Below, in pieces: positions 10,033-60,781 of a stretch of 64,000 nucleotides of DNA. The stretch covers positions 108,562-172,561 of the forward strand of contig CAKOHH010000001.1 of NCBI GenBank assembly GCA_934085675.1. The letters run 5' to 3'. Position 1 is the first letter of the stretch. Each line of letters opens with the position of its first letter. The notes under the pieces are model-generated. The model made no database searches. It saw only the letters and a list, made by a program, of their open reading frames with translations, and was not told the origin of the DNA. The stretch is from an uncultured Bacilli bacterium. Lineage in GTDB: Bacteria > Bacillota_I > Bacilli_A > RF39 > UBA660. A program made the position numbers and the translations under genes.

Positions 10033-11301
10033 ATGTTTACAGAGTATGATTATCAAAATGAACCAATTGTTGATATCGTTAATGAAATGCTAGTGGATGC
10101 TGCCAAAAAAAGGGCCAGTGATATCCACATGGACCCAACCCCTGATGTTTTAAATATAAGAATTAGGGTTGATGGAGAACTTATTTTATACGCTAAAGTA
10201 CCCGCGGCGGTTAAGAAAAATTTAGTCACCCGGGTGAAAATTATTTCAGGCATGAATATTACTGAGTCAAGAGTACCTCAAGATGGAGCTATCAAAATGA
10301 CAGTAGATGGCAAAGATTTAGACTTTCGTGTTTCGACACTGCCAATTGTTTATGGAGAAAAAGTCGTTATTCGTCTTTTAGATTATTCAGCTACCCAAGC
10401 ATCATTAGATAGCCTAGGTTTTTCAGAAGAAAACTTAGGTAAATTAAAAGAAGCAATGAATAAACCAAATGGCATTATTTTAGTAACTGGAGCCACAGGT
10501 TCTGGTAAATCAACAACAGTATATTCTATTTTACAATCTTTAAATTGTGTTGAAAGAAATATTATCACCGTTGAAGACCCCGTCGAGATGAAAATAGCCG
10601 GCATTAACCAAGTCCAAACTATGAGTGAAATTGGTCTTACCTTTGCCAGTGCTCTTCGTTCTATTTTAAGACAAGACCCCGACATTATCATGATTGGTGA
10701 GATTCGTGATAATGAAACTGCCCGTATTGCCGTTCGTGCATCTATCACAGGACACCTTGTCCTATCTACTATCCATACTAATAACTCTTTAACAACTATC
10801 GAAAGACTTGTAGATATGGATGTTGAAAGATATTTACTAGGTTCTGCCTTAGAAGCCATTGTTTCTCAAAGACTTTGCAAAAAACTTTGTCCAAAATGTC
10901 GCCGACCAAGAAAAACGACTGACTATGAAAAAAGAGTTATGAAAGAAGCTTTAAAAATGGATATTGATAACATTTATGAACCGGTCGGATGTGATGAATG
11001 TTACAAAGGCTACAAAGGACGTATTGCTTTACAAGAAGTTTTAGTTTTAAATCAAGAAATAAGAGATGCGATTGTCAATAACGCGACTAAAGAAGAACTA
11101 AGGGTACTTATTTACAACAATGGCCATACTTTAAAGTTATTAGATGATGGTTTAATCAAGGTTATTAACGGTTTAACAAGTTTTGAAGAAGTTTTAAGAG
11201 TTATTGATATTAAAGATGACTTAGGTGAAGGTGAATCTGATTTAAAAGACGCTTTAATTGGTAAAAAATCTTCTAAAACAATAGAGGTTGATACTTTATA
11301 A
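10033..11301 (+). CDS. comGA: GspE/PilB-family secretion ATPase (ComGA-like competence/type IV pilus assembly ATPase)
   Basis: Walker A GATGSGKST, Asp box, Walker B, His box. Tetracysteine motif CKKLCPKC...CDEC. 422 aa. No other comG/pil genes are adjacent. Confidence 0.8.
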   Translation: MFTEYDYQNEPIVDIVNEMLVDAAKKRASDIHMDPTPDVLNIRIRVDGELILYAKVPAAVKKNLVTRVKIISGMNITESRVPQDGAIKMTVDGKDLDFRVSTLPIVYGEKVVIRLLDYSATQASLDSLGFSEENLGKLKEAMNKPNGIILVTGATGSGKSTTVYSILQSLNCVERNIITVEDPVEMKIAGINQVQTMSEIGLTFASALRSILRQDPDIIMIGEIRDNETARIAVRASITGHLVLSTIHTNNSLTTIERLVDMDVERYLLGSALEAIVSQRLCKKLCPKCRRPRKTTDYEKRVMKEALKMDIDNIYEPVGCDECYKGYKGRIALQEVLVLNQEIRDAIVNNATKEELRVLIYNNGHTLKLLDDGLIKVINGLTSFEEVLRVIDIKDDLGEGESDLKDALIGKKSSKTIEVDTL

Positions 11302-11313
11302 AAATTTAAAAAG

Positions 11314-11925
11314 TTATTCGAAGACGGCATCCGTAATAAAATAACTTTTTTTATATTCTTTAACCATTTTTTCTAAATGGTGAATACCATAAATAAATAC
11401 TTCTTTATTTTGACTAATAAAATAATTTTCTAAATGTGAAGTCATAATATTTTCAAGCAAACATATAAAATCATAATTTTGATAATCATTTTCACTATTT
11501 AAGACATAGTTTAAAACACCTACTTTTATTTTTAGATTATTTAAAGCAAGATTATTTATAATTCTATTATAAAAACTCATTACATAAATATTTTGATACT
11601 CGTATTTTTGAAGAATTATACTTAAATGTTTGATATCACAATTCATTTCTTTTATTTCTAATAATATAATCTTATTGGTTTTAAGTTTTAAGACATTTTC
11701 TAAAAGAGGAATATTATCCTTTTTTAATTCTTTATAATTTGTTAAAGAAATAATTTTTCCTTTATAAATAGGATTATGACATATAACAAAAACATGATCT
11801 TTTGTAGTCCTAACATCACATTCAAATCCTACATAGTGAGGATTATTTAAACATTCTTCAAAAGCTTTCAAAGTATTTTCTTTCGCTTCTTTTTTGAGGC
11901 CTCGATGGGCAATTAAATGATTCAT
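11314..11925 (-). CDS. Glycerophosphodiester phosphodiesterase family protein
   Basis: IAHRG..KEAKENTLKAFE GDPD signature at the N-terminus. Confidence 0.7.
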   Translation of the reverse strand: MNHLIAHRGLKKEAKENTLKAFEECLNNPHYVGFECDVRTTKDHVFVICHNPIYKGKIISLTNYKELKKDNIPLLENVLKLKTNKIILLEIKEMNCDIKHLSIILQKYEYQNIYVMSFYNRIINNLALNNLKIKVGVLNYVLNSENDYQNYDFICLLENIMTSHLENYFISQNKEVFIYGIHHLEKMVKEYKKSYFITDAVFE

Positions 11926-11950
11926 AATATATCATATGAAAAAGATGAGT

Positions 11951-12385
11951 TTATAAAACAATAATTTTAAATAAAAGACCAATAATTAAAAAACAGACAA
12001 GAGAAACATACAGTTTTAAATGAGGAATTTCTTTTGGTTTTTCATCTTCTTCATATGTTTCTTTAAAAACAGGAGTAGCTTCTTCTTTTTTATTTATATA
12101 AAAAACATAATTTTCTTCACTCGAATCAGAATTTAGGATATGTAAAATTGTTTTATTTTTTTCTTTTATCACATTGACAGTTGCCTTTTTATCATTTAAA
12201 TCATAAGATAATTTTAATTCTTCTTCATTATCATTTAAAGTAACTGAATATAAATTATTATCTTTATTAAAAGGCATGGAAAGAGTGCCATTTAAAACTT
12301 GAAGATTTGTAATACTTTGAGCAGATGTTAACATTGGCCAAAAAAAGCAAAACAAAAAGAATAAGATTTTTTTCATAAAGTTCAC
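11951..12385 (-). CDS. Hypothetical secreted protein with C-terminal membrane anchor
   Basis: Signal peptide MKKILFFLFCFFWPMLTSAQS; C-terminal hydrophobic segment. Confidence 0.4.
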   Translation of the reverse strand: MNFMKKILFFLFCFFWPMLTSAQSITNLQVLNGTLSMPFNKDNNLYSVTLNDNEEELKLSYDLNDKKATVNVIKEKNKTILHILNSDSSEENYVFYINKKEEATPVFKETYEEDEKPKEIPHLKLYVSLVCFLIIGLLFKIIVL

Positions 12386-12424
12386 CTATATTTAAAGTGT
12401 CCTTTTTTTCTTATTCTATGCTAT

Positions 12425-13510
12425 TTAAATCATTTTTAATAAAATTTCATTCATAATATAAAATTTATCTTTAGGAATAAAGATGTAGCCATTCTCTTCT
12501 TTCAAATCTTTATTTTTTAAAAGAGGTTTAATAGGATAACAATCTTCCATATTTCTGCCAAATTTTTGTTTAAATTTTGTAAGAGAAATGCCCTCACACT
12601 TGCGAAAGCCTAACATAAGTTCATTATCCATCACATCTTTTAAAGACAATATCTCTTCTTCTTTTTGGTAAAAGCCTGCTAAATATTTGGTTAAACTTTT
12701 CGTATTAGTATAACGAATATCATCTATATAACCACTAGCACCTAGACCAAAACCATAATATTCTTCATTGTTCCAATAAGTTAAATTGTGCTTTGACTCA
12801 TAGCCATCTTTAGCAAAATTAGAAACTTCATAATGATGATAGCCCTTCTTTTCGAGCATTTTTATAATTGTTTTATACATCAAAGCATCTACATCTTCAC
12901 TAATGGGCTTTACATTTTGCTTAGAAAGCATCGTATGTGGTTCAATCATTAAACTATAGGTACTAATATGATTGGGCTCTAATTCTAATAAAAGGGTAAG
13001 ATCTTTTTTTAAAATGGAAAGATCTTCTGTTGGTAAAGCATACATTAAATCAATGTTAACATTTTCAAAACCTAAACGACGAATTAAAGCCATTTTTTCT
13101 TTGGCTTCTAAAAAAGTATGTTGTCGATTTAAAAAGGTAAGATTTGTTTCATTAAAAGATTGAATTCCTATACTTAAACGATTAACACCTTTTAGTTTTA
13201 AAAGATAAAGTATTTCTTCAGTAATATCATCTAAATTACATTCAAAAGTAAATTCAACTTGAGATTCTAAATGAAAAACTTGACAAATTTCTAATAATTT
13301 TTTGATTTGACTTAAAGATAAACAAGAAGGCGTACCACCTCCAATATAAATTGTTTTAATTTTTTCATCGAGATAGTGGTCTAAAATTTCCTCATTTAAT
13401 TTATCAAGATAAAGATCTACCCAATCTTTTTTATAATATAATTTGCAAAAATCACAATAGGAACAAATATTTTTACAAAAAGGAATATGAATATAAACGC
13501 TTTTACTCAT
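12425..13510 (-). CDS. hemW: Radical SAM heme chaperone HemW (HemN-like, oxygen-independent coproporphyrinogen III oxidase family)
   Basis: CKNICSYCDFC radical-SAM cysteine motif near the N-terminus. Adjacent to lepA, as in Bacillus. Confidence 0.8.
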   Translation of the reverse strand: MSKSVYIHIPFCKNICSYCDFCKLYYKKDWVDLYLDKLNEEILDHYLDEKIKTIYIGGGTPSCLSLSQIKKLLEICQVFHLESQVEFTFECNLDDITEEILYLLKLKGVNRLSIGIQSFNETNLTFLNRQHTFLEAKEKMALIRRLGFENVNIDLMYALPTEDLSILKKDLTLLLELEPNHISTYSLMIEPHTMLSKQNVKPISEDVDALMYKTIIKMLEKKGYHHYEVSNFAKDGYESKHNLTYWNNEEYYGFGLGASGYIDDIRYTNTKSLTKYLAGFYQKEEEILSLKDVMDNELMLGFRKCEGISLTKFKQKFGRNMEDCYPIKPLLKNKDLKEENGYIFIPKDKFYIMNEILLKMI

Positions 13511-16751: not shown

Positions 16752-17081
16752 TTAAGTAAATAAAATTTTGAAAATATTAACCAATTCATTAATACCTTTA
16801 GACATAAACTTTTCGATAATCTTTGAAAAATCAATCCCTAATTTTGTAGCCCCATTAGAATAATCTTTTTTTATATCAGTCAAATAATCTTTAATATCTA
16901 CATTTTTTCCAGCTCGAACATCTTCTTCAAATTGTTTCATGGCTTCATCAGTAATTGTCGCTTTTTCGCTTAGTTTAGCTTCATAGTATCCTGATGAAAT
17001 AGCAATAGTTAAAGATAAATATAAAATGAATAAAACAGCTAAAATTTTTAAAAAAATAGGTTCTTTTTTTTTACTTTCCAT
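16752..17081 (-). CDS. Small membrane protein, hypothetical
   Basis: 109 aa with an N-terminal TM segment. Confidence 0.35.
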   Translation of the reverse strand: MESKKKEPIFLKILAVLFILYLSLTIAISSGYYEAKLSEKATITDEAMKQFEEDVRAGKNVDIKDYLTDIKKDYSNGATKLGIDFSKIIEKFMSKGINELVNIFKILFT

Positions 17082-18009
17082 TTCCTAATATCACTTCCTT
17101 TAAAACTTTGGCAAGTATTAAAAGTGTATTATTAACTTCACTTATCTTATTATATTGTCCTCCAAGCTCAAAAAGAAGGGCGTTTGATGAAAAATCTTGA
17201 TTGTATATTCCATTTACACCTTGTCCACCTTTTTTTAGAACACCTCTACTCAAATGAGGAATTTCTTTATTCACCATCTCACTTATTTTTTCTGCTAATG
17301 CTAAGTTTTCCCGATAATTATCATGGTCTGTACCTATTACAAATAAAATTTTGGCATAAGATTTATTTTGATAAGAAATCGTACTTGCTTCATAAGAAAT
17401 CGAGTCACGATGAATATCAAAAAAATATTTTAAAGTTTGATTTTTACTTAAAGCATCTTGCATTAAAAATTTGCTTGCTTTATAACTGGAAGCATAATTC
17501 CAACCATTTATTTTTAAAACATTTTTAATAGGCGTTGTTTCCATAATCGTTTTAATATTTAAGTTATTCAGTTCTTCCCTTAATTTATAACCTGCTAACA
17601 TAACAGTTGGAATTACATCATGATTAGAAAGACCATTACTACTATATTCTTCTCCCTGATGAGTATTATATAAATAAACAGCAGGATTAGTTTTATTTTC
17701 TAGAGGCGCAGGATCAGCCAGGTACTCTTGAATAGCCTCTGCCCCATTATAAACTTCATCAACATTTTTACTTTGACCTATCGTATAATTAAGAAGATAA
17801 TCTAAAACATTATTATGTACGGTGATTTGTGAAGATGGTTTAAACATACTTTTTAAAATAAAGTCTAAAAATTTATCCGTGTTAAACAAATGAGCAAAAT
17901 AAGATAAGAAAAAAGCAAAACTTATTACAAGAGCACTTAGATTGAGTAAAAAGAAATTTCTTTTTTTCTTCGTTTTAAATCTCTTAGCCATATTATCACC
18001 TAAAAGCAT
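17071..18009 (-). CDS. spoIIP: Stage II sporulation protein P (SpoIIP) family
   Basis: N-terminal TM; VYLYNTHQGEEYS and LLFELGGQYN motifs characteristic of SpoIIP. Confidence 0.65.
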   Translation of the reverse strand: MLLGDNMAKRFKTKKKRNFFLLNLSALVISFAFFLSYFAHLFNTDKFLDFILKSMFKPSSQITVHNNVLDYLLNYTIGQSKNVDEVYNGAEAIQEYLADPAPLENKTNPAVYLYNTHQGEEYSSNGLSNHDVIPTVMLAGYKLREELNNLNIKTIMETTPIKNVLKINGWNYASSYKASKFLMQDALSKNQTLKYFFDIHRDSISYEASTISYQNKSYAKILFVIGTDHDNYRENLALAEKISEMVNKEIPHLSRGVLKKGGQGVNGIYNQDFSSNALLFELGGQYNKISEVNNTLLILAKVLKEVILGNGK

Positions 18010-18099
18010 TATATAAAAAGATGAAGAAATATATTGTCGGATTTTAATGTTTATATAGCATAAAAAAACACTTAACTAAAAAATTAAGTGTTAATTATA

Positions 18100-18960
18100 T
18101 TAAGACGGTTGCTTCAATTTTTCGATTTCTTTTTCAGTCAAGCCTGTCACTTTAGAAATATAATTGATATCGTTTGTTTCCTTTAATAAGTTTCTGGCAA
18201 CAATATCAATTCCTTTACTCATACCGATACTGATTCCTTGACTTTTACCAATATCAATTCCTTCTTCACGCCCATAATCACGAGCCTTTTTAAACATACT
18301 TCTTTCTTCATTCATTACTTCATCGCTTAAAAGGGCATTCATATACTCATCCATTGTCATAATTGTTCTCCATTTCTGTTTTAGTTTGTCTCGTTCTTCT
18401 TCACTATTTGCTTTTAAATATCTTAAAATATCTAAAAACTCTTCATCACTTATGCCTACATTATAATTAAGTTTATCTAGTAAATCAAGACGTATGTAAT
18501 AAATTTGAATATCATCTGTTAAAGGATAGCCTTGTTCTTCTAAGAAATATCTTTGCACTAATTTATCTTGTAAAACACCTTTTTTAACATGGTCTACTAA
18601 ATTAATTTGGATAAACTTCTTCATTTTATGATATGGCATGCTTTTTTTTAGTTGACTACTATAACCACGACAAAGATAAACATTTGACTTTCTTAAGTTT
18701 TCTTCATTGAATGTTTTATAAGCTTCTAAGTTTAAAATGACATTGTCTCCTAAAAAAGCAAAAACATCGGCCCTGATATTTTTTTCTTTATAAGTTGCTT
18801 TTTTAAATGGATATTCATGACTTTTAATCTCAATTTGTTTTTCTAAGAAACCTTTAGGTAATCTTAAAACATTTTCTGAGATAACTTCAAGTGGTCGGGT
18901 GTATTCTTCATTTCCTAAGATATTTTTCACCCAGTAGTCTTCCATTAAATCAATTTTCAT
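18100..18960 (-). CDS. Rpn/YhgA-like PD-(D/E)XK recombination-promoting nuclease / putative transposase (copy 1)
   Basis: 286 aa. D...E.K nuclease motif (IRADVFAFL...ILNLEAYK). C-terminal Gly-periodic helix region EEGIDIGKSQGISIGMSKGIDIVARNLL...GLTEKEIEKL, typical of the Rpn family. A near-identical copy lies at 21866-22735. Confidence 0.5.
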   Translation of the reverse strand: MKIDLMEDYWVKNILGNEEYTRPLEVISENVLRLPKGFLEKQIEIKSHEYPFKKATYKEKNIRADVFAFLGDNVILNLEAYKTFNEENLRKSNVYLCRGYSSQLKKSMPYHKMKKFIQINLVDHVKKGVLQDKLVQRYFLEEQGYPLTDDIQIYYIRLDLLDKLNYNVGISDEEFLDILRYLKANSEEERDKLKQKWRTIMTMDEYMNALLSDEVMNEERSMFKKARDYGREEGIDIGKSQGISIGMSKGIDIVARNLLKETNDINYISKVTGLTEKEIEKLKQPS

Positions 18961-19054
18961 GATTTCTTTCTCCTTTCTAAGAAGATAAATAAATTACCTT
19001 CTACTTATATATTCAAAAAAAATCCTTGATTTCCTTTTTTTTAGTGAAAAAAAA

Positions 19055-19089
19055 TTGCAATTTCTTGCAATCTTGACATTTATTTGACA
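19055..19089 (-). promoter_or_regulatory. Direct-repeat motifs TTGCAA-N4-TTGCAA and TTGACA-N5-TTGACA in the rpn-like gene's upstream region
   Basis: Seen directly. Repeated in all three cassette copies (19055-19089, 21011-21045, 22833-22867). A8/T8/A8 homopolymers sit just next to them (19015-19054). Confidence 0.4.
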
Positions 19090-20457
19090 CTAATTAACAA
19101 TATAAGGATCTGTCATAGTGCCGGTTCCTGTAATTGTAACGCCAGACTTTAAATTAATAACCGGACGGCATGCCAGATTTCCACCTGAATATGTATCGTC
19201 AATCGCATAAAAACCAGCATTTTGAGCAGAAAAAATTTTAACCTGTGGGCTTTGAAAATAAGCATCATAATAGCCAGATGGTGTCATTGTCCAAAACTCG
19301 TTTCCAGCAACTAAATAATCATTTATATTTTTTTTTGCATTATTATATTTACCATTTACAATTCCACCAGCATGACCAGCAAACATTACTTCATCAATTG
19401 TAATTAATCCAACCGGATATGTTAAAACTTTATTACCTAAAGAAGAGGAAGAAACAGTATAATAATCACTTGCATTCTCACATACAAGTGTTGGCTTACT
19501 TGCCTCAACTCTTACATATGCTTTATAATAAGTTATCGTTTGTCCTATTCCTGTGTTTGAATCATTTGATAATGAACTGCGATCACCACAAAACCCAACA
19601 TTGATATCTAATTTTGATGCGTAACTCGAAAGTTTATCCGTATAGAACTTATCTACATTTGTTTTAATTTTTGATGATGTTCCCGTACCATGAGTTTCTC
19701 CTTCAGTATACATATAGCCTACATACATATTGTTATTAGAACTTGGATTAAATTGACTGGTGCCATATTGTCTATCTGTTGATGATTCGCCATTAGCATG
19801 GGCACTTGTACCATCATAAATCATTCTAATAGAACCATTGCTGTTTATTCTTATGATTCTCCAATAGTAACCTGCAAACTTGACATAATTGTTTTCTACT
19901 GAACCTCGATAATAATAAGTAGGCTTGCCATCATTGTCTGTTGTTTCATAAATTCCTTTTTCGTGGGATTCACATGAAGAATCATCACAGGCTGACTTTG
20001 TAAAATCTGGAGTATAACTATTAACTTCAATGTTTCCTAAAGCCGTTTTTAGTGTTTTAGCTGTTTTATTAAAATATAAAGTACATTTGGTTCTAGTATT
20101 ATCTGTTGCACTATAATTATAATAATCACCAATGAATTTCCAACCAGCATTATCCCAAGTTGGAACAACGCCATTATTACAGTTTGATTTTGTTTCATCT
20201 AAAGTGTAACCTGTATTTTGAAGAGGCATATTTCTTGATATAACCCCATCTATATAATAAGCAAAATAAATGTCTCCTGGATCTTCTACTGTGCCATTTA
20301 TGACATCAAAAGCTTTCTTTTCTTCATATAAAGCATAGGATTTATAAAATAAATAACTGCTTATGGAAAGTAAAAGAAATCCTATGACTAATATGACATA
20401 AGATTTTCTTTTATAATTATTGTCTTTATATCTTTTTAATTCCATTATCTTCACCAT
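19090..20457 (-). CDS. Secreted variable surface/exoprotein, family A1, paralog 1
   Basis: Sec signal with KSYA-LYEEK cleavage site. Conserved core YYYRGSVENNYVKFAGYYWRIIRINSNGSIRMIYDG. C-terminal tail RPVINLKSGVTITGTGTMTDPYIVN. Paralogous to 7 other ORFs in the window. Confidence 0.7.
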   Translation of the reverse strand: MVKIMELKRYKDNNYKRKSYVILVIGFLLLSISSYLFYKSYALYEEKKAFDVINGTVEDPGDIYFAYYIDGVISRNMPLQNTGYTLDETKSNCNNGVVPTWDNAGWKFIGDYYNYSATDNTRTKCTLYFNKTAKTLKTALGNIEVNSYTPDFTKSACDDSSCESHEKGIYETTDNDGKPTYYYRGSVENNYVKFAGYYWRIIRINSNGSIRMIYDGTSAHANGESSTDRQYGTSQFNPSSNNNMYVGYMYTEGETHGTGTSSKIKTNVDKFYTDKLSSYASKLDINVGFCGDRSSLSNDSNTGIGQTITYYKAYVRVEASKPTLVCENASDYYTVSSSSLGNKVLTYPVGLITIDEVMFAGHAGGIVNGKYNNAKKNINDYLVAGNEFWTMTPSGYYDAYFQSPQVKIFSAQNAGFYAIDDTYSGGNLACRPVINLKSGVTITGTGTMTDPYIVN

Positions 20458-20505
20458 AGTTTCCTATGATGATTATAACAGATACCCCCCCCCCGACTGT
20501 CAATA
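20458..20505 (-). promoter_or_regulatory. Promoter with a G10 homopolymer in the -35/-10 spacer (candidate phase-variation switch)
   Basis: Minus strand reads TTGACAgtc-G10-tatcTGtTATAAT-catcatAGGAAActATG. The poly-C run on the + strand spans 20485-20494. Confidence 0.65.
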
Positions 20506-20544
20506 GGTTTTTATTTTATTTGGTTGCTATAATTGTTTTATTTC

Positions 20545-20909
20545 TTTTTTGGAAAGCACCGAAATCATAGCAATGTAATCTAAATCATCGGTTGTTTTTA
20601 ATAGTCGTTCGATAACTGCCTTTTTCTCTGCATCAATTCCTTCTTCACGGCCATAATCATGAGCCTTTTTAAGCTGACTACTATAACCACGACAAAGATA
20701 AACATTTGACTTTCTTAAATTTTCTTCATTGAATGTTTTATAAGCTTCTAAGTTTAAAATGATATCTTTTCTTAAAAAAGCAAAAACATCGGCCCTGATA
20801 TTCTTTTCTTTATAAGTTGCTTTTTTAAATGGATATTCATGACTTATAATCTCAATTTGTTTCCTAAGATATTTTTCACCCAGTAGTCTTCCATTAAATC
20901 AATTTTCAT
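20545..20909 (-). pseudogene. Rpn-like nuclease gene remnant (two internal deletions, altered 3' end)
   Basis: Start codon and the first ~20 codons are identical to the intact copies. About 360 bp and about 80 bp are missing. Both deletion junctions sit at short direct repeats (gcctttttaa / ttctaaga). Confidence 0.7.
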
Positions 20910-21250
20910 GATTTTTGTCTCCTTCCTAAGAAGATAAATAAATTACCTTCTACTTATATATTCAAAAAAAATCAGCAATTTCCTTTTTTTTAATGAAAAA
21001 AGATTGCAATTTCTTGCAATCTTGACACTTATTTGACATCAATTAACAATATAAGGATTTATTATAATGACTATTCCAATAAAACTAAAGTCTGAGTAAA
21101 TATTGACGCAGTCCTTAAAAACTATTTAAGCCATAACCATCATAAGTTCTTAAATCATATTTTAAAGTATAGGAAAAATTAAAGTCAAATCAACTTAACT
21201 TGATGAAGTCATTATTCAATAGGATATGCCTGCTAAATAAATACTATTTT

Positions 21251-21814
21251 TCACTTTCTCAATTCTTTATTTTTTTCTTTTTCTATATTTGATTCTAATA
21301 TGCTTTCTAAATTTTTATAATAATAAATATTTTCAAGACCTACATGGACTCCTAAAGGTTCAAATTCTATTTGATTAACTAGTACTCCTCCTAAAGATTT
21401 ATGAAATTCATTTGACGGATTACCATCTAGGCAAGCAGTTATAAGTTCAGTATATCCTAGTTTTAATAATTCCTTCATACACTCAATTGCCATTTTTCTA
21501 CCTAGTCCTAAATTTTGAAATTCATCTAAAATATATTCAGAATATATTTCACCAGCATTTGGATAACCATCAAATTTAGTTTTACCAAAAGTACTAAAAC
21601 CGACAATTTTACCATCTACTAATGCCACATATGTATTATTTTTTTGCCTAATGCTATTTTCTTTCTTTTTTATTCTTTCTTCATCCTTGTATTGTAATTT
21701 ATCAATTATCTCTTTTGGTATCAAATCTTTATATGTGCTATTCCATACTTTAATATGTATATCAATTATTCTTTCAGCATCTTCTGGAATGGCTTTTCTA
21801 ATTTCTGTGTTCAT
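21251..21814 (-). CDS. GNAT-family N-acetyltransferase
   Basis: 187 aa with the acetyl-CoA-binding motif Q/RNLGLGRKM. Confidence 0.7.
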   Translation of the reverse strand: MNTEIRKAIPEDAERIIDIHIKVWNSTYKDLIPKEIIDKLQYKDEERIKKKENSIRQKNNTYVALVDGKIVGFSTFGKTKFDGYPNAGEIYSEYILDEFQNLGLGRKMAIECMKELLKLGYTELITACLDGNPSNEFHKSLGGVLVNQIEFEPLGVHVGLENIYYYKNLESILESNIEKEKNKELRK

Positions 21815-21865
21815 TTAATTACTCCTCTCATTTCTTGTTATTATAACACTTTTGTATCCGTATAT

Positions 21866-22735
21866 CTATACTAACACAATTTTCTCTAATTCTTCTTTAG
21901 AAAGTCCTGTGGCAGCAGAAATCTTTTCTAAAGAAAAGTTCATTTTTAAAAGTTCTTTGGATATTAGGATACGTTCCTCTTTTTTGCCAACATCAATTCC
22001 TTTACTCATGCCGATACTGATTCCTTTATCAATTCCTTCTTCACGACCATAATCACGAGCCTTTTTAAACATACTTCTTTCTTCATTCATTACTTCATCG
22101 CTTAAAAGGGCATTCATATACTCATCCATTGTCATAATTGTTCTCCATTTCCATTTTAGTTTGTCTCGTTCTTCTTCACTATTTGCTTTTAAATATCTTA
22201 AAATATCTAAAAACTCTTCATCACTTATGCCTACATTATAATTAAGTTTATCTAGTAAATCAAGACGTATGTAATAAATTTGAATATCATCTGTTAAAGG
22301 ATAGCCTTGTTCTTCTAAGAAATATCTTTGCACTAATTTATCTTGTAAAACACCTTTTTTTACATGGTCTACTAAATTAATTTGGATAAACTTCTTCATC
22401 TTATGATATGGCATGCTCTTTTTTAGTTGACTACTATAGCCACGACAAAGATAAACATTTGATTTTCTTAAATTTTCTTCATTAAATGTTTTATAAGCTT
22501 CTAAGTTTAAAATGATATCTTTTCTTAAAAAAGCAAAAACATCGGCCCTGATATTCTTTTCTTTATAAGTTGCTTTTTTGAATGGATATTCATGACTTTT
22601 AATCTCAATTTGTTTTTCTAAGAAACCTTTAGGTAATCTTAAAACATTTTCTGAGATAACTTCAAGTGGTCGGGTGTATTCTTCATTTCCTAAGATATTT
22701 TTCACCCAGTAGTCTTCCATTAAATCAATTTTCAT
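21866..22735 (-). CDS. Rpn/YhgA-like PD-(D/E)XK recombination-promoting nuclease (copy 2)
   Basis: More than 90% identical to 18100-18960 over most of its length. The C-terminal Gly-repeat region is diverged. Confidence 0.5.
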   Translation of the reverse strand: MKIDLMEDYWVKNILGNEEYTRPLEVISENVLRLPKGFLEKQIEIKSHEYPFKKATYKEKNIRADVFAFLRKDIILNLEAYKTFNEENLRKSNVYLCRGYSSQLKKSMPYHKMKKFIQINLVDHVKKGVLQDKLVQRYFLEEQGYPLTDDIQIYYIRLDLLDKLNYNVGISDEEFLDILRYLKANSEEERDKLKWKWRTIMTMDEYMNALLSDEVMNEERSMFKKARDYGREEGIDKGISIGMSKGIDVGKKEERILISKELLKMNFSLEKISAATGLSKEELEKIVLV

Positions 22736-22864
22736 GATTTCTTTCTCCTTTCTAAGAAGATAAATAAATTACCTTCTACTTATATATTCAAAAAAAATCC
22801 TTGATTTCCTTTTTTTTAGTGAAAAAAAATTGCAATTTCTTGCAATCTTGACATTTATTTGACA

Positions 22865-24229
22865 CTAATTAACAATATAAGGATCTGTCATAGTGCCGGT
22901 TCCTGTAATTGTAACGCCAGACTTTAAATTAATAACCGGACGGAGACCATTGTTATAAACTGTAGCTCCATCGCCAAAAGCACCTAAACCACCGACGCCG
23001 ATTACACTAGTAAACCAGCTAGTTCCGCAGAACGGATAATAACCTCCTGCTGGTGTCATTGTCCAGTAAGAAATTCCCATTATCAAATAACTATCTGCAT
23101 TTTCCTTTTGATGACTATATTCACCATCAAAGACACCACCGGCATGACCTGCATACATAGCTTCATCAGCGGTTATTAAGCCAATCGGGTAGTTTAATTT
23201 TTTATTACCGCTTGCCGCACTAGAAACCGTATAATAATCTTTTATATTTTCACAGGTAAGTGTTGGTGTACTTTCTTCTACCCTTATGTATCCTTTATTA
23301 TAAGTAGTTACCGTGCCGGTTCCGACACCACTTTGCTGAGTTAGGCTAGAACGGTCTCCACAAAAACCTGCATTCGTATCTAATTTTGAAACGTAACTTG
23401 AAAGTTTATCTGTATAGAACTTGTCCACATTTATTTTAACGGCTGAAGCTGTACTCGTGCCATAGGCTTCTCCGGATGTGTACATATAGCCGACATACAT
23501 ATTGTTATCTGATGATGTATTAAATGGACTGGTACCGTATCGTCTATCTTCAGAAGCCTCTCCGTTTTTATGAGCTACTGTCCCATCATAAAGCATTCTA
23601 ATTGAACCATTGCTGTTTATTCTTATGATTCGCCAGTAAAAGCCTGCAAACTTAACATAATTATTTTCGACAGAACCACGATAGTAATAAGTTGGCTTTC
23701 CATCATTGTCTGTTGTTTCAAAAATGCCTTTTTCATGGGATTCACATAAAGAATCATCACAGGCTGACTTTGTAAAATCTGGAGTATAACTATTCACTTC
23801 AATATTTCCTAAAGCCGTTTTTACTGTTTTTGCTGTTTTATTAAAATATAAAGTACATTTAGTTCTTGTATTTGTGGTTGCACTATAATTTTTGTAATTC
23901 ATTTTGGCTTCCCAAGAAGCATTATTCCAAGTTGGAACAACACCATTATTACAATTTGATTTTGTTTCATCTAAAGTATAACCCGTATTTTGAGCTGGCA
24001 TATTTCTTGATATAACACCATCTATATAATAAGCAAAATAGATATCTCCTGGATCTTCTACTGTTCCATTTATGACATCAAAATCTTTCTTTTCTTCATA
24101 TAAAGCATAGGATTTATAAAATAAATAACTATTTACAGAAAGTAAAAGAAATCCTATGACTAATATGACATAAGATTTTCTTTTATAATTATTGTCCTTA
24201 TATTTTTTTAATTCCATTATCTTCACCAT
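22865..24229 (-). CDS. Secreted variable surface/exoprotein, family A1, paralog 2
   Basis: N-terminal ~330 aa nearly identical to paralog 1. The C-terminal third has diverged. The C-terminal tail is the same. Confidence 0.7.
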   Translation of the reverse strand: MVKIMELKKYKDNNYKRKSYVILVIGFLLLSVNSYLFYKSYALYEEKKDFDVINGTVEDPGDIYFAYYIDGVISRNMPAQNTGYTLDETKSNCNNGVVPTWNNASWEAKMNYKNYSATTNTRTKCTLYFNKTAKTVKTALGNIEVNSYTPDFTKSACDDSLCESHEKGIFETTDNDGKPTYYYRGSVENNYVKFAGFYWRIIRINSNGSIRMLYDGTVAHKNGEASEDRRYGTSPFNTSSDNNMYVGYMYTSGEAYGTSTASAVKINVDKFYTDKLSSYVSKLDTNAGFCGDRSSLTQQSGVGTGTVTTYNKGYIRVEESTPTLTCENIKDYYTVSSAASGNKKLNYPIGLITADEAMYAGHAGGVFDGEYSHQKENADSYLIMGISYWTMTPAGGYYPFCGTSWFTSVIGVGGLGAFGDGATVYNNGLRPVINLKSGVTITGTGTMTDPYIVN

Positions 24230-24280
24230 AGTTTCCTATGATAATTATAACAGATACCCCCCCCCCCGACTGTCAAGAGG
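24230..24280 (-). promoter_or_regulatory. Promoter with a G11 homopolymer in the spacer (candidate phase-variation switch)
   Basis: Same TTGACAgtc-Gn-tatctgTTATAAT architecture. The C run on the + strand spans 24257-24267, which is 11 nt. Confidence 0.65.
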
Positions 24281-24291
24281 CTTTTGGGAGT

Positions 24292-25641
24292 TTAATTCAC
24301 TATATATGGATCTGTTTTGGTTCCTGTTCCTGTGATTGTTACATCTGAGCAAATGTTAACAACAGGTTTTATACCTACAGTAGCAGTACATGTCCAGTCA
24401 TTTATTTGACCAACACCCCCATTAAGAAAGAGAGACGTAGACCAATACCCATCACCAATGATAAAAGTTCCAGAAACTGGAGTTATAGTCCAAAAATTTG
24501 TTCCTGATGTATAAATATTTAAACTTTTAGGTTGTATATTTAAAACACCTTCAAACATTCCTCCTCCAGAGCCTGATAGCATTAACTCATCTACCGTGAT
24601 TAAGCCAATATTATACTTTAAACTTCTATTTCCAATGTTTGCTGATGAAATTGTATAATAATCATCATTCATACATGACAAATCAGGATTACTTTGAACA
24701 ACACGCTTATATCCTTCAAAAATGGTGTCATTATTATTAATTCCAGCATTATTGTTATTCGATGTTAAGATAATTCTACGATCCCCACAGAAACCGACAT
24801 TTGTATCTAATTTTGATGCGTAACTCGAAAGTTTATCCGTATAGAACTTATCTACATTTGTTTTAATTTTTGATGATGTTCCCGTACCATGAGTTTCTCC
24901 TTCAGTATACATATAGCCTACATACATATTGTTATTAGAACTTGGATTAAATTGACTGGTGCCATATTGTCTATCTGTCGATGCCTCCCCATTAGCATGA
25001 GCACTTGTCCCATCATAAATCATTCTTATTGAGCCATTACTGTTTATCCTTATGATTCGCCAATAAAAGCCTGCAAACTTAACATAATTGTTTTCTACTG
25101 AGCCACGATAGTAATAGGTTGGATTGCCATCATAGTCTGTTGTTTCAAAAATGCCTTTTTCATGGGATTCACATAAAGAATCATCACAGGCTGACTTTGT
25201 AAAATCTGGAGTATAACTATTCACTTCAATATTTCCTAAAGCCGTTTTTACTGTTTTAGCTGTTTTATTAAAATACAAAGTGCATTTGGTTCTAGTATTT
25301 GTGGTCGCACTATAATTATGATAATCACCAATAAATTTCCAACCAGCATTATCCCAAGTTGGAACAACGCCATTATTACAGTTTGATTTTGTCTCATCTA
25401 AAGTATAACCTGTATTTTGAAGAGGCATATTTCTTGATATAACGCCATCTATATAATAAGCAAAATAAATATCCCCTGGATCTTCTACGGTTCCATTTAT
25501 GACATCAAAATCTTTCTTTTCTTCATACAAGGCATAACTCGGGGATAAAACTAGATATCCTGCTACTACCCCTAATAAAAAAAATAAGAAAAAAATTAGT
25601 ATCTTCTTATAATTTATTTGTTTAAACTTTTTCAAAGACAT
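24292..25641 (-). CDS. Secreted variable surface/exoprotein, family A1, paralog 3
   Basis: Different signal peptide (MSLKKFKQINYKKILIFFLFFLLGVVAG). Same core as paralogs 1/2. Divergent C-terminal third. Tail KPVVNICSDVTITGTGTKTDPYIVN. Confidence 0.7.
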   Translation of the reverse strand: MSLKKFKQINYKKILIFFLFFLLGVVAGYLVLSPSYALYEEKKDFDVINGTVEDPGDIYFAYYIDGVISRNMPLQNTGYTLDETKSNCNNGVVPTWDNAGWKFIGDYHNYSATTNTRTKCTLYFNKTAKTVKTALGNIEVNSYTPDFTKSACDDSLCESHEKGIFETTDYDGNPTYYYRGSVENNYVKFAGFYWRIIRINSNGSIRMIYDGTSAHANGEASTDRQYGTSQFNPSSNNNMYVGYMYTEGETHGTGTSSKIKTNVDKFYTDKLSSYASKLDTNVGFCGDRRIILTSNNNNAGINNNDTIFEGYKRVVQSNPDLSCMNDDYYTISSANIGNRSLKYNIGLITVDELMLSGSGGGMFEGVLNIQPKSLNIYTSGTNFWTITPVSGTFIIGDGYWSTSLFLNGGVGQINDWTCTATVGIKPVVNICSDVTITGTGTKTDPYIVN

Positions 25642-25710
25642 AAAAAAATCACCACAGTTTCCCTATGATGATTATAACAGATACCCCCCCCCCGACTGTC
25701 AAGAGTATCT
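25642..25710 (-). promoter_or_regulatory. Promoter with a G10 homopolymer in the spacer (candidate phase-variation switch)
   Basis: TTGACAgtc-G10-tatctgTTATAAT. The C run on the + strand spans 25684-25693. Confidence 0.65.
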
Positions 25711-25727
25711 TTTAAAGCATTAAATTT

Positions 25728-26288
25728 TTACGCTCTACTTGAATATTTACCATCGCTAGTTGAGATAATAATTCTTTCGCCTTGGCTAATGAATAATGGC
25801 ACTTTAACAGTATAGCCTGTTTCAATTTTAGCATCTTTCATAGCATTGTTAGTTGTATTACCTTTAACAGCTGGTTCTGTTTCAACAACTTCGAATTCGA
25901 TTTTTTCAGGTAAAGTAACACCTAATAATTCGCCTTCATAATAATCAAGTTTGATTTCGATTCCTTCTTTTAAGAAACGTTTTTCATTTTCTAATTTACT
26001 TCCTGGAACTTCTACTTGATCATAAGTTTCTGTGTTCATGAACACATAGTTATCTCCATTAGCATATAAAAATTGCATTGGATTATGTTCCACACGAGCT
26101 CTTTCAATTTTAATATTAGTATTGTAAGAGTTTTCAACAACAGCACCTGTTCTTAAGTTCTTAGTTTTCATACGAACAAAAGCACTGCCTTTTCCAGGTT
26201 TAACATGTTGGAATTCAATAATTTGACAAAGATTACCGTCTAAAATAATTGTCATTCCATTTTTAATATCGTTGATATTAATATTCAT
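25728..26288 (-). CDS. efp: Elongation factor P
   Basis: 186 aa; KPGKG loop motif (HVKPGKGSAFVRMK). Confidence 0.9.
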   Translation of the reverse strand: MNININDIKNGMTIILDGNLCQIIEFQHVKPGKGSAFVRMKTKNLRTGAVVENSYNTNIKIERARVEHNPMQFLYANGDNYVFMNTETYDQVEVPGSKLENEKRFLKEGIEIKLDYYEGELLGVTLPEKIEFEVVETEPAVKGNTTNNAMKDAKIETGYTVKVPLFISQGERIIISTSDGKYSSRA

Positions 26289-36649: not shown

Positions 36650-36810
36650 TTTTTACCTCCTTTATTAATTAAGACACGCCGAAGTAAGGTAACCAAATGG
36701 TCTTTATAACCCAGTTCGTGCGGTTTTATAAAAGCTAATGGCTTTCAAAAACATATATATTCTATCAAATTCCTATATTCCTGTCAAATTAAATATAAGC
36801 AATGATGTTC
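36650..36810 (-). ncRNA. Possible L21 (rplU) ribosomal-protein leader
   Basis: About 160 nt of structured non-coding sequence directly upstream of rplU. Firmicutes are known to carry an L21 leader here. Cannot be verified without a covariance model. Confidence 0.3.
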
Positions 36811-56585: not shown

Positions 56586-56617
56586 TTTACTATCCTTTCA
56601 TCTAATAAAAAACAAAA

Positions 56618-58597: not shown

Positions 58598-58630
58598 TTT
58601 TACTATCCTTTCATCTAATAAAAAATAAAA

Positions 58631-60646: not shown

Positions 60647-60781
60647 GTATTTTAAACTACCTTTATTATTACTTTATAAGTATAGCACTTTATCGCACAT
60701 TTTAGCAACTTGTTTTCAAATAAAAAAACGAGTAAGTCTCGCTTTTTTAGAATAAATATTTTATGTTGTATCTTTAAAAAA

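Follow-up and report, generated by a model that had tools for sequence, protein, structure and literature searches.

We analysed a 64,000-nt stretch of DNA (the window) from an uncultured, spore-forming gut member of the Bacilli with a genomic GC content of 30%, probably a near relative of 'Candidatus Ventrenecus'. Between efp and spoIIP, it carries a tandem array in which the repeating unit is a promoter, a surface-protein gene, a spacer, and a gene of the PDDEXK_2/Rpn family (rpn). A preliminary description of this DNA had proposed a decayed third cassette beside two intact ones. Alignment of positions 20500-21100 (minus strand) with both intact cassettes, and with a relative of the same tail type (L034), bears this out: a pseudogene copy of an rpn gene lies at 20516-21058 on the minus strand, with its upstream spacer complete, and pairwise alignment with an intact cassette confirmed the homology that had been read by eye.

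The array and its intact genes

The following features frame the relic.

18100-18960 and 21866-22735, within the window: intact PDDEXK_2/Rpn-family genes (rpn1 and rpn2)
20472-20503, minus strand: poly-G (G10) promoter-like element of surf1, the next surface gene, starting about 13 nt past the end of the relic

Both intact rpn genes encode the N-terminal PD-(D/E)XK domain expected of the family, with PF12784 scores of 55.1 bits for rpn1 and 52.1 bits for rpn2 against a threshold of 27.4, and the relic aligns to them at 95-97% nucleotide identity. On the narrower model TIGR01784, rpn1 was covered over its full length (E 4e-12) and scored 46.5 bits, below the curated cut-off of 52.1, and a search of the array Rpn proteins with PF04754 gave no match at E <= 0.01. 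The Rpn protein likewise had no PADLOC match and no sequence relative in the PDB. The array copies carry the four-amino-acid repeats characteristic of Rpn proteins (PMC10400941), in which an internal start for the small antitoxin RpnS lies 8-20 residues before the repeats (PMC10400941). The intact copies have a methionine (MFKKARDYGREEGID) 12 residues ahead of their repeats, a putative internal start. A faint precomputed match to PF27070 (HTH_Rpn_C) falls on the C-terminal fragment of rpn1, and a Pfam scan of the rpn tails at E <= 10 returned noise only, with nothing significant.

In the array, these rpn genes and the surface-protein genes come in regular alternation, the latter under the control of poly-G promoters. 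No surface gene lacks a start codon or a promoter-like element of its own; the element, TTGACAGTC-G(10-11)-TATCTGTTATAAT, stands upstream of 18 of the 18 surface genes examined, with a spacer of 20-21 nt that exceeds the sigma-70 optimum. The G-tract of one and the same promoter reads G11 in the window and G10 in a related contig (L038), a difference that homopolymer sequencing error could also produce. Since there is a promoter at every surface gene, the array is not an expression-site/silent-cassette system for antigenic variation of the vls, pilS or MgPa type. The surface protein had no match in Pfam, NCBIfam or PADLOC and no sequence relative in the PDB, and an AF2 model built from a 24-sequence alignment reached a pLDDT of 34, with no usable fold. 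Our search of the literature turned up no account connecting Rpn genes with antigenic or phase variation.

All three surface genes of the array are mosaic with respect to one another, and a relative that is 94% identical (L037) has a single cassette between efp and spoIIP. Judged from these two comparisons, the locus has clearly been rearranged; together with the deletions in the relic, they agree with the earlier proposal that deletion and recombination take place here.

The rpn relic and its deletion junctions

Four lesions distinguish the relic from its relatives: two deletions of 73 and 357 nt, a 72-nt repeat contraction, and the loss of a single nucleotide near the stop codon.

20844-20909, minus strand: residual rpn start, an ATG plus 21 codons and then a TAA made by the frameshift
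20527-20898, minus strand: rpn-homologous frame, open for 123 codons, in which residues 34-110 are joined to the C-terminal tail ...AEKKAVIERLLKTTDDLDYIAMISVLSKKEIKQL
20860-20869, minus strand: junction of deletion 1 (73 nt, frameshifting), inside TCTTAG[G/A]AAA (alignment to the intact cassettes)
20665-20672, minus strand: junction of deletion 2 (357 nt, in frame, approximately residues 111-229), inside TTAAAAAG (alignment to L034)
20632-20640, minus strand: 72-nt contraction (six four-amino-acid units) between GGAATTGAT repeats (comparison with L034 and P0011)
20531-20532, minus strand: 1-nt deletion where relatives have G (alignment); KQL-stop replaces KQCIATR-stop

The rpn start codon and 5' end that had been recognised at 20909 are present, as an ATG at 20909-20907 followed by the first 16 rpn codons in alignment, and the shifted frame ends in the TAA at 20846-20844. 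Of the nuclease domain, only residues 1-16 and 34-110 are retained. The copy is dead because the frameshift brings a TAA after 21 codons and the homologous frame at 20527-20898 has no start codon, with ATG, GTG and TTG all absent until 13 codons before the stop; no normal start codon can give rise to either the long or the short Rpn product. An open stretch of 123 codons in an AT-rich genome fits a very recent inactivation and could also hint at residual use.

The earlier claim that two internal segments are missing, with both junctions at short direct repeats, holds. Deletion 1 lies in an imperfect 10-nt direct repeat with a 73-nt period, matching at 9 of 10 positions (3 nt exact). Deletion 2 lies in a repeat that is exact over 8 nt, TTAAAAAG, with a 357-nt period in L034 (left copy CAACTTAAAAAGAGC, right copy ATGTTTAAAAAGGCT); it removed most of the nuclease domain together with the ATG of MFKKARDYG, the likely internal RpnS start. 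Repeats thus flank the missing segment in the intact relative and one copy stays at the junction, as in pseudogenes formed by deletion between repeats. Microhomology at both junctions exceeds chance: for random deletion ends in rpn2, the probability of an exact microhomology of at least 8 nt is 0.0011, and that of a match of at least 9/10 at the junction is 0.0017. One of the decayed rpn copies in another locus, remnant A of L036, has its right-hand junction site in common with the relic and a different left-hand one. In the repeat region, the shared GREE is followed by GIDI-GKSQ-GISI-GMSK-GIDI in rpn1, by GIDK-GISI-GMSK-GIDV in rpn2, by seven units in L034 and P0011, and by GIDA alone in the relic, a difference from L034 of exactly 72 nt.

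The body of the relic is 96.8% identical to rpn2, 95.2% to rpn1, and 93.1% to L034. Gene conversion of the rpn body (concerted evolution) was considered as a cause of this pattern, and the differences in identity are too small for it to be claimed firmly. The C-terminal tail is 95.9% identical to that of the L034 gene and 95.4% identical to L036 remnant B; with P0011, these are the orthologues of its tail type. By its tail, the relic belongs to the lineage of a third rpn type ("rpnX") and is not copied from rpn1 or rpn2.

In L034, the order of surface gene, spacer, rpnX, poly-G promoter and surface gene is the layout predicted for the ancestor. The suggestion that another strain might carry an intact third cassette at this site led to none: the GNAT-anchored contigs were all identical to the window, and a metagenome scan with the neighbouring GNAT acetyltransferase gene gave only homologues of at most 70% identity in unrelated contexts. 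Exact-protein look-ups of rpn2 and surf1 returned no record, and most of the contigs with spoIIP or efp as anchor break off within the array. Because an intact third cassette was not found at the exact site, the ancestral state is drawn from other loci and species. Two further contigs (L041 and L052) were left out as evidence for their low-quality or chimeric look (an interrupted G-tract; 1.3x coverage). Elsewhere, rpn copies have decayed independently, in L036 (A and B), L034 (a nonsense codon), L011, L008 and L009.

The spacer, the surface-gene remnant and the GNAT gene

Upstream of the relic rpn start, the minus strand carries the following features.

20910-20999, minus strand: conserved rpn leader with an A8 tract, TATAAG, a 5'-UTR hairpin and a Shine-Dalgarno sequence (alignment of 16 leaders)
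21000-21023, minus strand: terminator-like hairpin AAGATTGCAA-GAAA-TTGCAATCTT with a T-run (folding)
21022-21048, minus strand: three phased direct repeats, TGTTAA (21048-43), TGTCAA (21038-33) and TGTCAA (21027-22)
21039-21058, minus strand: well-conserved surface-gene end, with the final 17 nt, ATCCTTATATTGTTAAT (21058-21042, PYIVN codons), and the TGA stop (21041-21039)
21059-21138, minus strand: strongly decayed 3' end of the lost surface gene surfX, with a fuzzy upstream limit at about 21100-21140
21235-21829, minus strand: the GNAT gene with 15 nt on either side, the only part in common with a GNAT in a different genomic context (L049-L051), at 89.7% nucleotide identity
21866-21878, minus strand: last four rpn2 codons, non-homologous to other rpn genes; the upstream limit of the GNAT-bearing replacement

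The surface-gene stub, spacer and rpn 5' end match an intact cassette at 187 of 199 positions. The spacer and its TTGCAA-N4-TTGCAA motif are therefore present as the preliminary description had it, with the correction that the TTGCAA feature is a terminator-like hairpin. Its 10-bp stem, GAAA loop and following TTTTTT have the form of an intrinsic (Rho-independent) terminator, and one is predicted here. The folding energy is -11.6 kcal/mol (z -4.6) in the relic versus -9.0 in the intact cassettes, and one stem pair has gone from G-U to G-C through a T-to-C change at 21002. An Rfam search of the relic region found no RNA family. The leader contains a -10-like TATAAG at 20958-20953, a 5'-UTR hairpin at 20951-20929 (a predicted fold) and a Shine-Dalgarno sequence, GGAAGGAG, at 20926-20919, and it is kept even ahead of rpn paralogues that are merely 52% identical (L012 and L013). 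The phased TGT(T/C)AA repeats are spaced 10 and 11 nt apart, the first within the last surface-gene codons; they are kept across species, and analogous ones occur upstream of solo rpn genes with no surface gene (L004, L012 and L013). This distribution suggests a candidate protein-binding site of the rpn module.

The preliminary description had taken the surface-gene stub to be 17 nt long and the sequence beyond it to be unrelated. The PYIVN codons and the TGA are indeed there, matching intact genes at 18 of 20 positions over 21039-21058, and this bin is as well conserved (mean 17.1/20) as among intact genes (17.5/20). The sequence beyond is related after all. Compared in register and without gaps, 21059-21138 is identical to the 3' end of surf3 at 41 of 80 positions, while all of some 4000 other registers averaged 23 +/- 4 and never exceeded 36. 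The decayed homology was detected by this fixed-register test only; Smith-Waterman comparison of 21059-21250 with the 3' regions of the surface genes gave no significant score (z -0.1 to 1.7). Matches per 20-nt bin fall from 11.1 to 10.6 and 7.6 in the remnant, as against 15.7, 15.0 and 13.6 between intact genes. The remnant reads VNIYSDFSFIGIVIII... where intact genes read VNICSDVTITGTGTKTD..., its GC content is 0.26 versus 0.36-0.45, GC-to-AT changes outnumber AT-to-GC changes by 9 to 3, and G446 and T447, (nearly) invariant in the surface family, are replaced. On this register comparison, the surface-gene remnant is about 80-100 nt long, the part beyond 17 nt having kept only about 50% identity, with a shift in composition towards AT. 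Since the remnant continues past 17 nt, the step at 21058/59 is where a conserved or homogenised block ends and not a deletion breakpoint. Gene conversion and a functional DNA site are candidate reasons for the conservation of the last 17 nt.

Past the stub, 21251-21814 encodes the GNAT acetyltransferase (PF00583) noted earlier. It is not a conserved neighbour of the array in related loci. The homology of four related loci stops at 21878/79, and comparison of the rpn2 tail with P0007 and L036 remnant A shows its last four codons to be non-homologous. The ancestral cassette boundary that had been placed at the stub is thus not one in the strict sense; the limits of the rearrangement lie near 21100-21235 on one side and at about 21877/78, inside the last rpn2 codons, on the other. 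Given these limits, the GNAT gene appears to be a derived insertion or replacement that also removed the last rpn2 codons. Downstream of the gene, no terminator-like site comes before the spacer hairpin, which now probably terminates GNAT transcripts.

History of the relic and comparison with known systems

We consider it likely, with a probability of roughly 85%, that the region is the non-functional relic of a third unit of promoter, surface gene, spacer and rpn, shaped by both the deletions and the GNAT replacement. The 73-nt and 357-nt deletions between short A-rich direct repeats inactivated rpnX. Replication slippage and other RecA-independent illegitimate recombination are the standard route for deletions between repeats of 8-10 nt, and may have operated here. 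In a separate event, which would be the older one if order and age are read from divergence levels alone, a GNAT-bearing segment of about 0.75 kb probably took the place of most of the surface gene and its poly-G promoter, together with the last rpn2 codons. The leftover 80-100 nt of surface-gene 3' end would then have decayed neutrally towards AT, while the adjoining block of 17 nt, phased repeats, hairpin, leader and rpn body remained 92-97% similar to the other copies. This similarity would be explained by a recent loss of rpnX function, or else by gene conversion and constraint at the DNA level acting on the block.

A compatible extension, which adds a function to this history, is that the relic was co-opted: its coding part is dead, and the spacer is kept as a GNAT terminator that insulates the putatively phase-variable surf1 promoter from read-through. 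We think this possible, if somewhat unlikely. The hairpin is the sole terminator-like site between the GNAT stop (21251) and surf1, it is stronger in the relic through the new G-C pair, and the spacer is kept and the rpn body lost in all L036 and L034 relics. However, the surf3-surf2 junction (24230-24291) has neither spacer nor hairpin, so surface-gene promoters tolerate read-through, and retention of the spacer may merely reflect where the deletion-driving repeats lie.

The Rpn nucleases of the array might themselves have produced the deletions and the GNAT replacement as by-products, with double-strand breaks being mended through template switching that does not depend on RecA. In E. coli, Rpn proteins act as endonucleases of no sequence specificity and increase RecA-independent recombination (PMC5350276, Kingston et al. 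2017), RpnL has been suggested to initiate recombination that duplicates rpn genes and alters their repeat number (PMC10400941, Zhong et al. 2023), and independent rearrangements are dense around the rpn genes here, next to mosaic surface genes. This support is correlative only, and we regard the idea as improbable: at 30% GC, A-rich repeats of 8-10 nt are just where slippage is classically seen, and it requires no nuclease of its own; homologous recombination of the usual kind between copies with 75-100% identity is expected to produce mosaics; and many rpn copies are themselves dead. Slightly more doubtful still is a broader proposal, in which the phased TGT(T/C)AA repeats, leader and rpn would form an active recombination module driving surface-gene duplication, deletion and mosaic exchange. 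If true, the poly-G phase-variable surface proteins of an uncultured gut lineage of Bacilli would be varied by a nuclease-assisted system that works without RecA; the identity step at 21058/59 would be the edge of the module's target site, and the abundance of dead rpn copies would be the price paid for a toxic nuclease.

It is very unlikely that the truncated copy still makes a useful small protein, whether an antitoxin resembling RpnS or the N-terminal fragment fused to the tail. Stand-alone RpnS genes are known downstream of rpn genes in E. coli (PMC10400941), and the homologous frame keeps the entire C-terminal tail over its 123 codons; against this stand the want of a start codon in that frame, the early stop after the ATG at 20909, the loss of the MFKKARDYG start to deletion 2, and a window with no full-length rpnX partner bearing the relic's tail. 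An assembly artefact, with short reads across near-identical repeats collapsing or mis-joining cassettes, is hardly credible: although the source is probably a metagenome-assembled genome and contigs from related samples very often break inside the array, three independent assemblies (L001-L003: ERZ27287180 from megahit, an ERZ28614142 scaffold, and Logan ERR7745994), made from different samples with different assemblers, read through the relic into the unique GNAT flank and are 99.9-100% identical there, so the structure is not an artefact, and the relic, which has 12 private substitutions over 199 nt as well as a distinct tail type, cannot be a chimera of rpn1 and rpn2.

As a pseudogene the relic is ordinary, and the type of array in which it lies, that of tandem Rpn duplications, is known. 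By itself it matters little, and its value is that of a dated marker in an unusually dynamic locus. It indicates that the same A-rich hotspots encoding (F/L)KK are sites of repeated rpn inactivation in these arrays, that a third Rpn tail type was once present here, and that the array took up a GNAT gene of a housekeeping type. The wider system comprises thousands of unannotated surface-protein variants behind G10-11 tracts, interleaved with Rpn toxin/nuclease genes; it belongs to a common, uncultured human-gut lineage and may bear on commensal surface variation or phage resistance.

Among known systems, the relic resembles pseudogenes of multigene families made by slipped-strand or illegitimate (RecA-independent) recombination. 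It keeps one copy of an 8-10-nt repeat at each junction, in A-rich motifs at low GC, and its hotspot recurs in the independent L036 remnant A; nothing substantial sets it apart from this textbook pattern. The array also resembles the Rpn (YhgA-like) nuclease systems with RpnS and tandem arrays, in that the intact paralogues have the N-terminal PD-(D/E)XK domain (PF12784) and an in-frame methionine 12 residues before the repeats, and the copies form a tandemly duplicated array with variable ends and truncated and fused derivatives. It differs from them in that the Pfam family is PDDEXK_2 and not Transposase_31, with a TIGR01784 score below the cut-off, in the alternation of rpn with poly-G-promoter surface genes, an association not described for Rpn, and in the relic copy, which is dead and has no internal start. 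Contingency loci such as Mycoplasma vlp/vsa and Neisseria opa/pil share with the array tandem, mosaic surface-protein paralogues, a G10-11 homopolymer inside a promoter-like element whose length appears to differ between otherwise identical contigs, copy number that varies between strains, and decayed units. In contrast to those loci, the relic here keeps no surface-gene sequence that could be donated, the surface location and function of the protein are only putative, and the host is a spore-forming gut commensal lineage.

Organization of the locus

All genes of the locus lie on the minus strand, with transcription running from high to low coordinates. Its repeating unit, the cassette, consists of a surface gene, a spacer, and an rpn gene, and the features are listed below in transcription order.

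Features of the locus
26288-25728, minus: efp
25671-25702, minus: poly-G promoter-like element of surf3
25641-24292, minus: surf3, a surface gene
24245-24276, minus: poly-G element of surf2
24229-22865, minus: surf2, a surface gene
between surf2 and rpn2, minus: spacer of 129 nt
22735-21866, minus: rpn2 (289 aa)
21814-21251, minus: GNAT acetyltransferase gene, then about 190 nt up to the relic
21058-20516, minus: relic region, a decayed third cassette between the GNAT side and the poly-G element of surf1
20472-20503, minus: poly-G element of surf1
20457-19090, minus: surf1, a surface gene, followed by a spacer
18960-18100, minus: rpn1 (286 aa)
beyond rpn1, minus: spoIIP, a yqxA-like gene, and lepA

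The window has a GC content of 30.4%, and the nearest genomes are human gut MAGs; a surface-protein homologue with 72% identity carries the UniRef label 'Candidatus Ventrenecus sp.' Rfam matches in the window are ordinary, comprising only two tRNA genes and an L21 ribosomal leader (829-1020, 36662-36735). Both rpn1 and rpn2 match Pfam PF12784 (PDDEXK_2; 55 and 52 bits, threshold 27.4), and NCBIfam TIGR01784, 'Rpn family recombination-promoting nuclease/putative transposase', matches over the full length at 46.5 bits, under its cut-off of 52.1.

The rpn pseudogene and its ancestry

The relic is an Rpn-family pseudogene, an ordinary kind of feature, that arose by deletions between short repeats and retains an intact spacer next to a decayed surface-gene end. 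A preliminary description had reported an rpn-like start codon and 5' end and two missing internal segments with junctions at short direct repeats, and pairwise alignment with the intact cassettes bears this out. The stub, spacer, and 5' end are identical at 187/199 positions to each intact cassette, and the middle part at 179-182/188. In alignment A1, against both cassettes, the relic's ATG falls at 20909-20907 and the first 16 codons are present. The first deletion (73 nt) has its junction in an imperfect direct repeat, TCTTAG[G/A]AAA (9/10 match, 3 nt exact), and shifts the frame, so that the reading frame from the ATG stops at a TAA (20846-20844) 21 codons on. The second deletion (357 nt) is in frame; when aligned with L034, a related locus with the same tail type (alignment A2), its junction lies in an exact 8-nt repeat, TTAAAAAG, with CAACTTAAAAAGAGC as the left site and ATGTTTAAAAAGGCT as the right. 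For random end points in rpn2, an exact microhomology of at least 8 nt has a probability of 0.0011 and a 9/10 match one of 0.0017, and chance is therefore rejected for these junction repeats. Relative to L034 and the related protein P0011, the relic also has a third gap, of 72 nt between GGAATTGAT repeats and equal to six four-amino-acid units, and lacks one base four codons ahead of the normal stop. Since the second deletion also removed the internal Met, neither Rpn product can be made. A one-off assembly artefact is ruled out as the source, because three assemblies (L001-L003) from differing samples and pipelines span the relic and its unique GNAT flank at 99.9-100% identity.

The relic's C-terminal tail, ...GIDAEKKAVIERLLKTTDDLDYIAMISVLSKKEIKQL, is unlike those of both rpn1 and rpn2 and instead has 95.9% nucleotide identity to the rpn tail of L034 and 95.4% to an rpn remnant of L036, which is a further array in the sample that yielded the 100%-identical L002; the same tail type occurs in proteins P0010 and P0011. 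The relic thus derives from a third type, which we call rpnX, and is not a partial copy of its neighbors. L034 has the predicted ancestral order (surface gene, spacer, rpnX, poly-G promoter, surface gene), and its rpnX contains both segments gone from the relic but is also disabled, codon 71 having changed from AGA to the nonsense codon TGA.

Disruption affects about 7 of the approximately 17 rpn copies examined. L036 carries rpn relics in two gaps between surface genes. In remnant A, a 5' deletion leads to a stop after 14 codons, and a second, large deletion runs between CCATTTAAAAAAGC and TGTTTAAAAAGGC; its right-hand site is that of the window relic and its left-hand site differs, which shows that this hotspot was used independently in the two relics. 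In remnant B, nothing but the spacer and an rpnX-type tail is left. In related locus L011, rpn is reduced to a 14-codon stub, and in L008 and L009 it is without the leader and first 40-50 codons. The motif T(T)AAAAA(A/G)(A/G)(G)C occurs three times in frame in each rpn gene, encoding PFKKA, QLKKS, and MFKKA, which accounts for the recurrence of in-frame deletions. The relics between surface genes elsewhere lie at 11354-11795 and 13161-13446 in L036 and at 3514-3752 in L034, with one deleted at the window relic's right-hand site, TTTAAAAAGGC.

The surface-gene remnant and the GNAT segment

Upstream of the relic's spacer, the preliminary description had seen a 17-nt surface-gene stub followed by unrelated sequence. 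The stub is real, with 18/20 matches to intact surface genes in the last 20 nt up to the stop (21058-21039), but homology does not end there: over the following 80 nt, 41/80 positions agree with the 3' end of surf3 in the same register and free of gaps, while about 4000 other registers give 23 +/- 4 and at most 36. The remnant translates as VNIYSDFSFIGIVIIINPYIVN*, compared with VNICSDVTITGTGTKTDPYIVN* in intact surface genes, and its match decays with distance from the stop.

Matches per 20-nt bin upstream from the stop
Bin 1: relic vs intact 17.1; intact vs intact 17.5
Bin 2: relic vs intact 11.1; intact vs intact 15.7
Bin 3: relic vs intact 10.6; intact vs intact 15.0
Bin 4: relic vs intact 7.6; intact vs intact 13.6

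GC content is 26% in the remnant and 36-45% in the corresponding part of surf1-3; where surf1-3 agree, nine changes are GC-to-AT and three AT-to-GC, and G446 and T447, (nearly) invariant across the family, are replaced. Together these features identify the remnant as a surface-gene fragment that is old and decaying neutrally. At 21058/59, where identity drops from about 94% to about 52%, a block that remained conserved comes to an end; this is not the site at which the gene was cut.

The segment with GNAT is a derived feature. The rpn genes of four related loci are homologous to rpn2 only as far as 21878/79, which lies four codons short of the rpn2 stop, and the related tails extend 6-10 residues further. 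We found no GNAT gene in related arrays; in L037, where EF-P is identical and nucleotide identity is about 94%, a single cassette lies between efp and spoIIP. The nearest other GNAT (88% amino acid, 89.7% nucleotide identity) belongs to another genome and has a different neighborhood, and homology is confined to the ORF +/- 15 nt (window 21235-21829; L049 7986-8580), which suggests that this gene moved on its own. In L049 it sits between recG-side genes and a block with transglutaminase, Abi_C, and an integrase fragment. Among more distant homologues, no neighboring gene is in common with the window. In the simplest history, a GNAT-bearing segment of about 0.75 kb would have displaced the rpn2 end together with a poly-G promoter and some 1.3 kb of surfX, the relic's lost surface gene.

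Spacer elements, surface-gene arrays, and known Rpn systems

Both motif pairs previously noted in the spacer are present. A 10-bp hairpin, AAGATTGCAA-GAAA-TTGCAATCTT, has TTGCAA-N4-TTGCAA at its core; it precedes a T-run and is terminator-like (folding energy -11.6 kcal/mol in the relic, -9.0 kcal/mol in intact cassettes). On the coding strand, TTGACA-N5-TTGACA is TGTCAA-N5-TGTCAA; the final codons of the surface gene add a TGTTAA, making a set of three direct repeats at spacings of 10 and 11 nt. Analogous phased repeats, without the hairpin, occur at solo rpn genes lacking an upstream surface gene (L004, L012, L013), a pattern suggesting that the repeats are part of the rpn module and that the hairpin goes with the surface gene. 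The gene surf3, which no rpn follows, ends ATAGTGAAT, without the TGTTAA repeat. In the spacer, the 95 nt after the repeats and terminator-like hairpin are the rpn leader; they contain an A8 tract, a TATAAG box, a 5'-UTR hairpin, and a Shine-Dalgarno sequence, and are kept even ahead of rpn paralogues that are just 52% identical as proteins; in distant paralogues (L012, L013), leader conservation exceeds that of the coding sequence. The 5'-UTR hairpin, AGAAGGTAA-N5-TTATCTTCT, is conserved immediately upstream of the rpn ribosome-binding site, at 20929-20951 (equivalents 18980-19002 and 22755-22777), with a compensatory variant, AGAAAGTAA/TTACTTTCT, in L012. The 17 nt conserved in a dead cassette may be explained by membership in the cis element just described or as the end point of gene-conversion tracts.

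The surface-protein family is unannotated and has more than 6,975 clusters at 90% identity. Surf1 and surf2 are 93-98% alike in the first ~180 nt and 100% alike in the last 66 nt and spacer, while surf1 and surf3 share two internal blocks that are 97-100% alike. Such block switching clearly indicates that the paralogues have exchanged sequence by recombination or gene conversion. In all three genes (19090-20457, 22865-24229, 24292-25641), the conserved 3' end comes after a hypervariable stretch (alignment columns ~960-1380). Every surface gene in the window and in L034 and L036-L044 is preceded by TTGACAGTC-G(10 or 11)-TATCTGTTATAAT, in which the 20-21-nt spacing to TATAAT is above the sigma-70 optimum. 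The tract of the surf2 promoter is G11 in the window and G10 in the otherwise identical contig L038, and the efp-adjacent tract is G11 in L042 and G10 elsewhere; these differences look like homopolymer phase variation. The single cassette of L037 sets array size between strains at 1 to at least 3 units; there (10562-13072, against window 17071-26288), the surface gene is split into 372 + 65 aa and rpn encodes 278 aa. The surf2 promoter element follows surf3 within 13 nt (24230-24291), with no trace of spacer, hairpin, or rpn, so this unit either lost the rpn module wholly or never had it. A second tandem family (54957-62614, minus strand) has four larger paralogues (542-671 aa) whose C-terminal half is ~36% identical to surf1-3, with no poly-G tracts or rpn genes; the copy at 60782-62614 is apparently truncated at its N terminus.

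In Escherichia coli, Rpn proteins act as endonucleases of the PD-(D/E)XK type and increase RecA-independent recombination (PMC5350276). Zhong et al. described them as toxins blocked by RpnS, a small protein from an internal start; four-amino-acid repeats in the shared C-terminal domain vary, beginning 8-20 residues past that start, and rpn arrays arise by tandem duplication with variable ends, with small stand-alone or fused derivatives that appear and are then lost (PMC10400941). Our literature search found no paper tying Rpn genes to surface-protein genes that follow G10-11 tracts. The more novel possibility, for which the basis is correlation and which we consider improbable, would be that the rpn module is an active driver of rearrangement in these putatively phase-variable arrays. 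The rpn 3' parts (18100-18330, 21866-22100; P0010, P0011) carry the hallmark described for Rpn toxin/intragenic antitoxin pairs. In keeping with the account of Zhong et al., the rpn genes here have four-amino-acid units (GIDI, GKSQ, GISI, and GMSK, 1 to 7 per copy), a Met 12 residues ahead of the repeats, and a tandem array with decayed members; unlike described Rpn systems, they alternate regularly with surface-protein genes behind G10-11 tracts.
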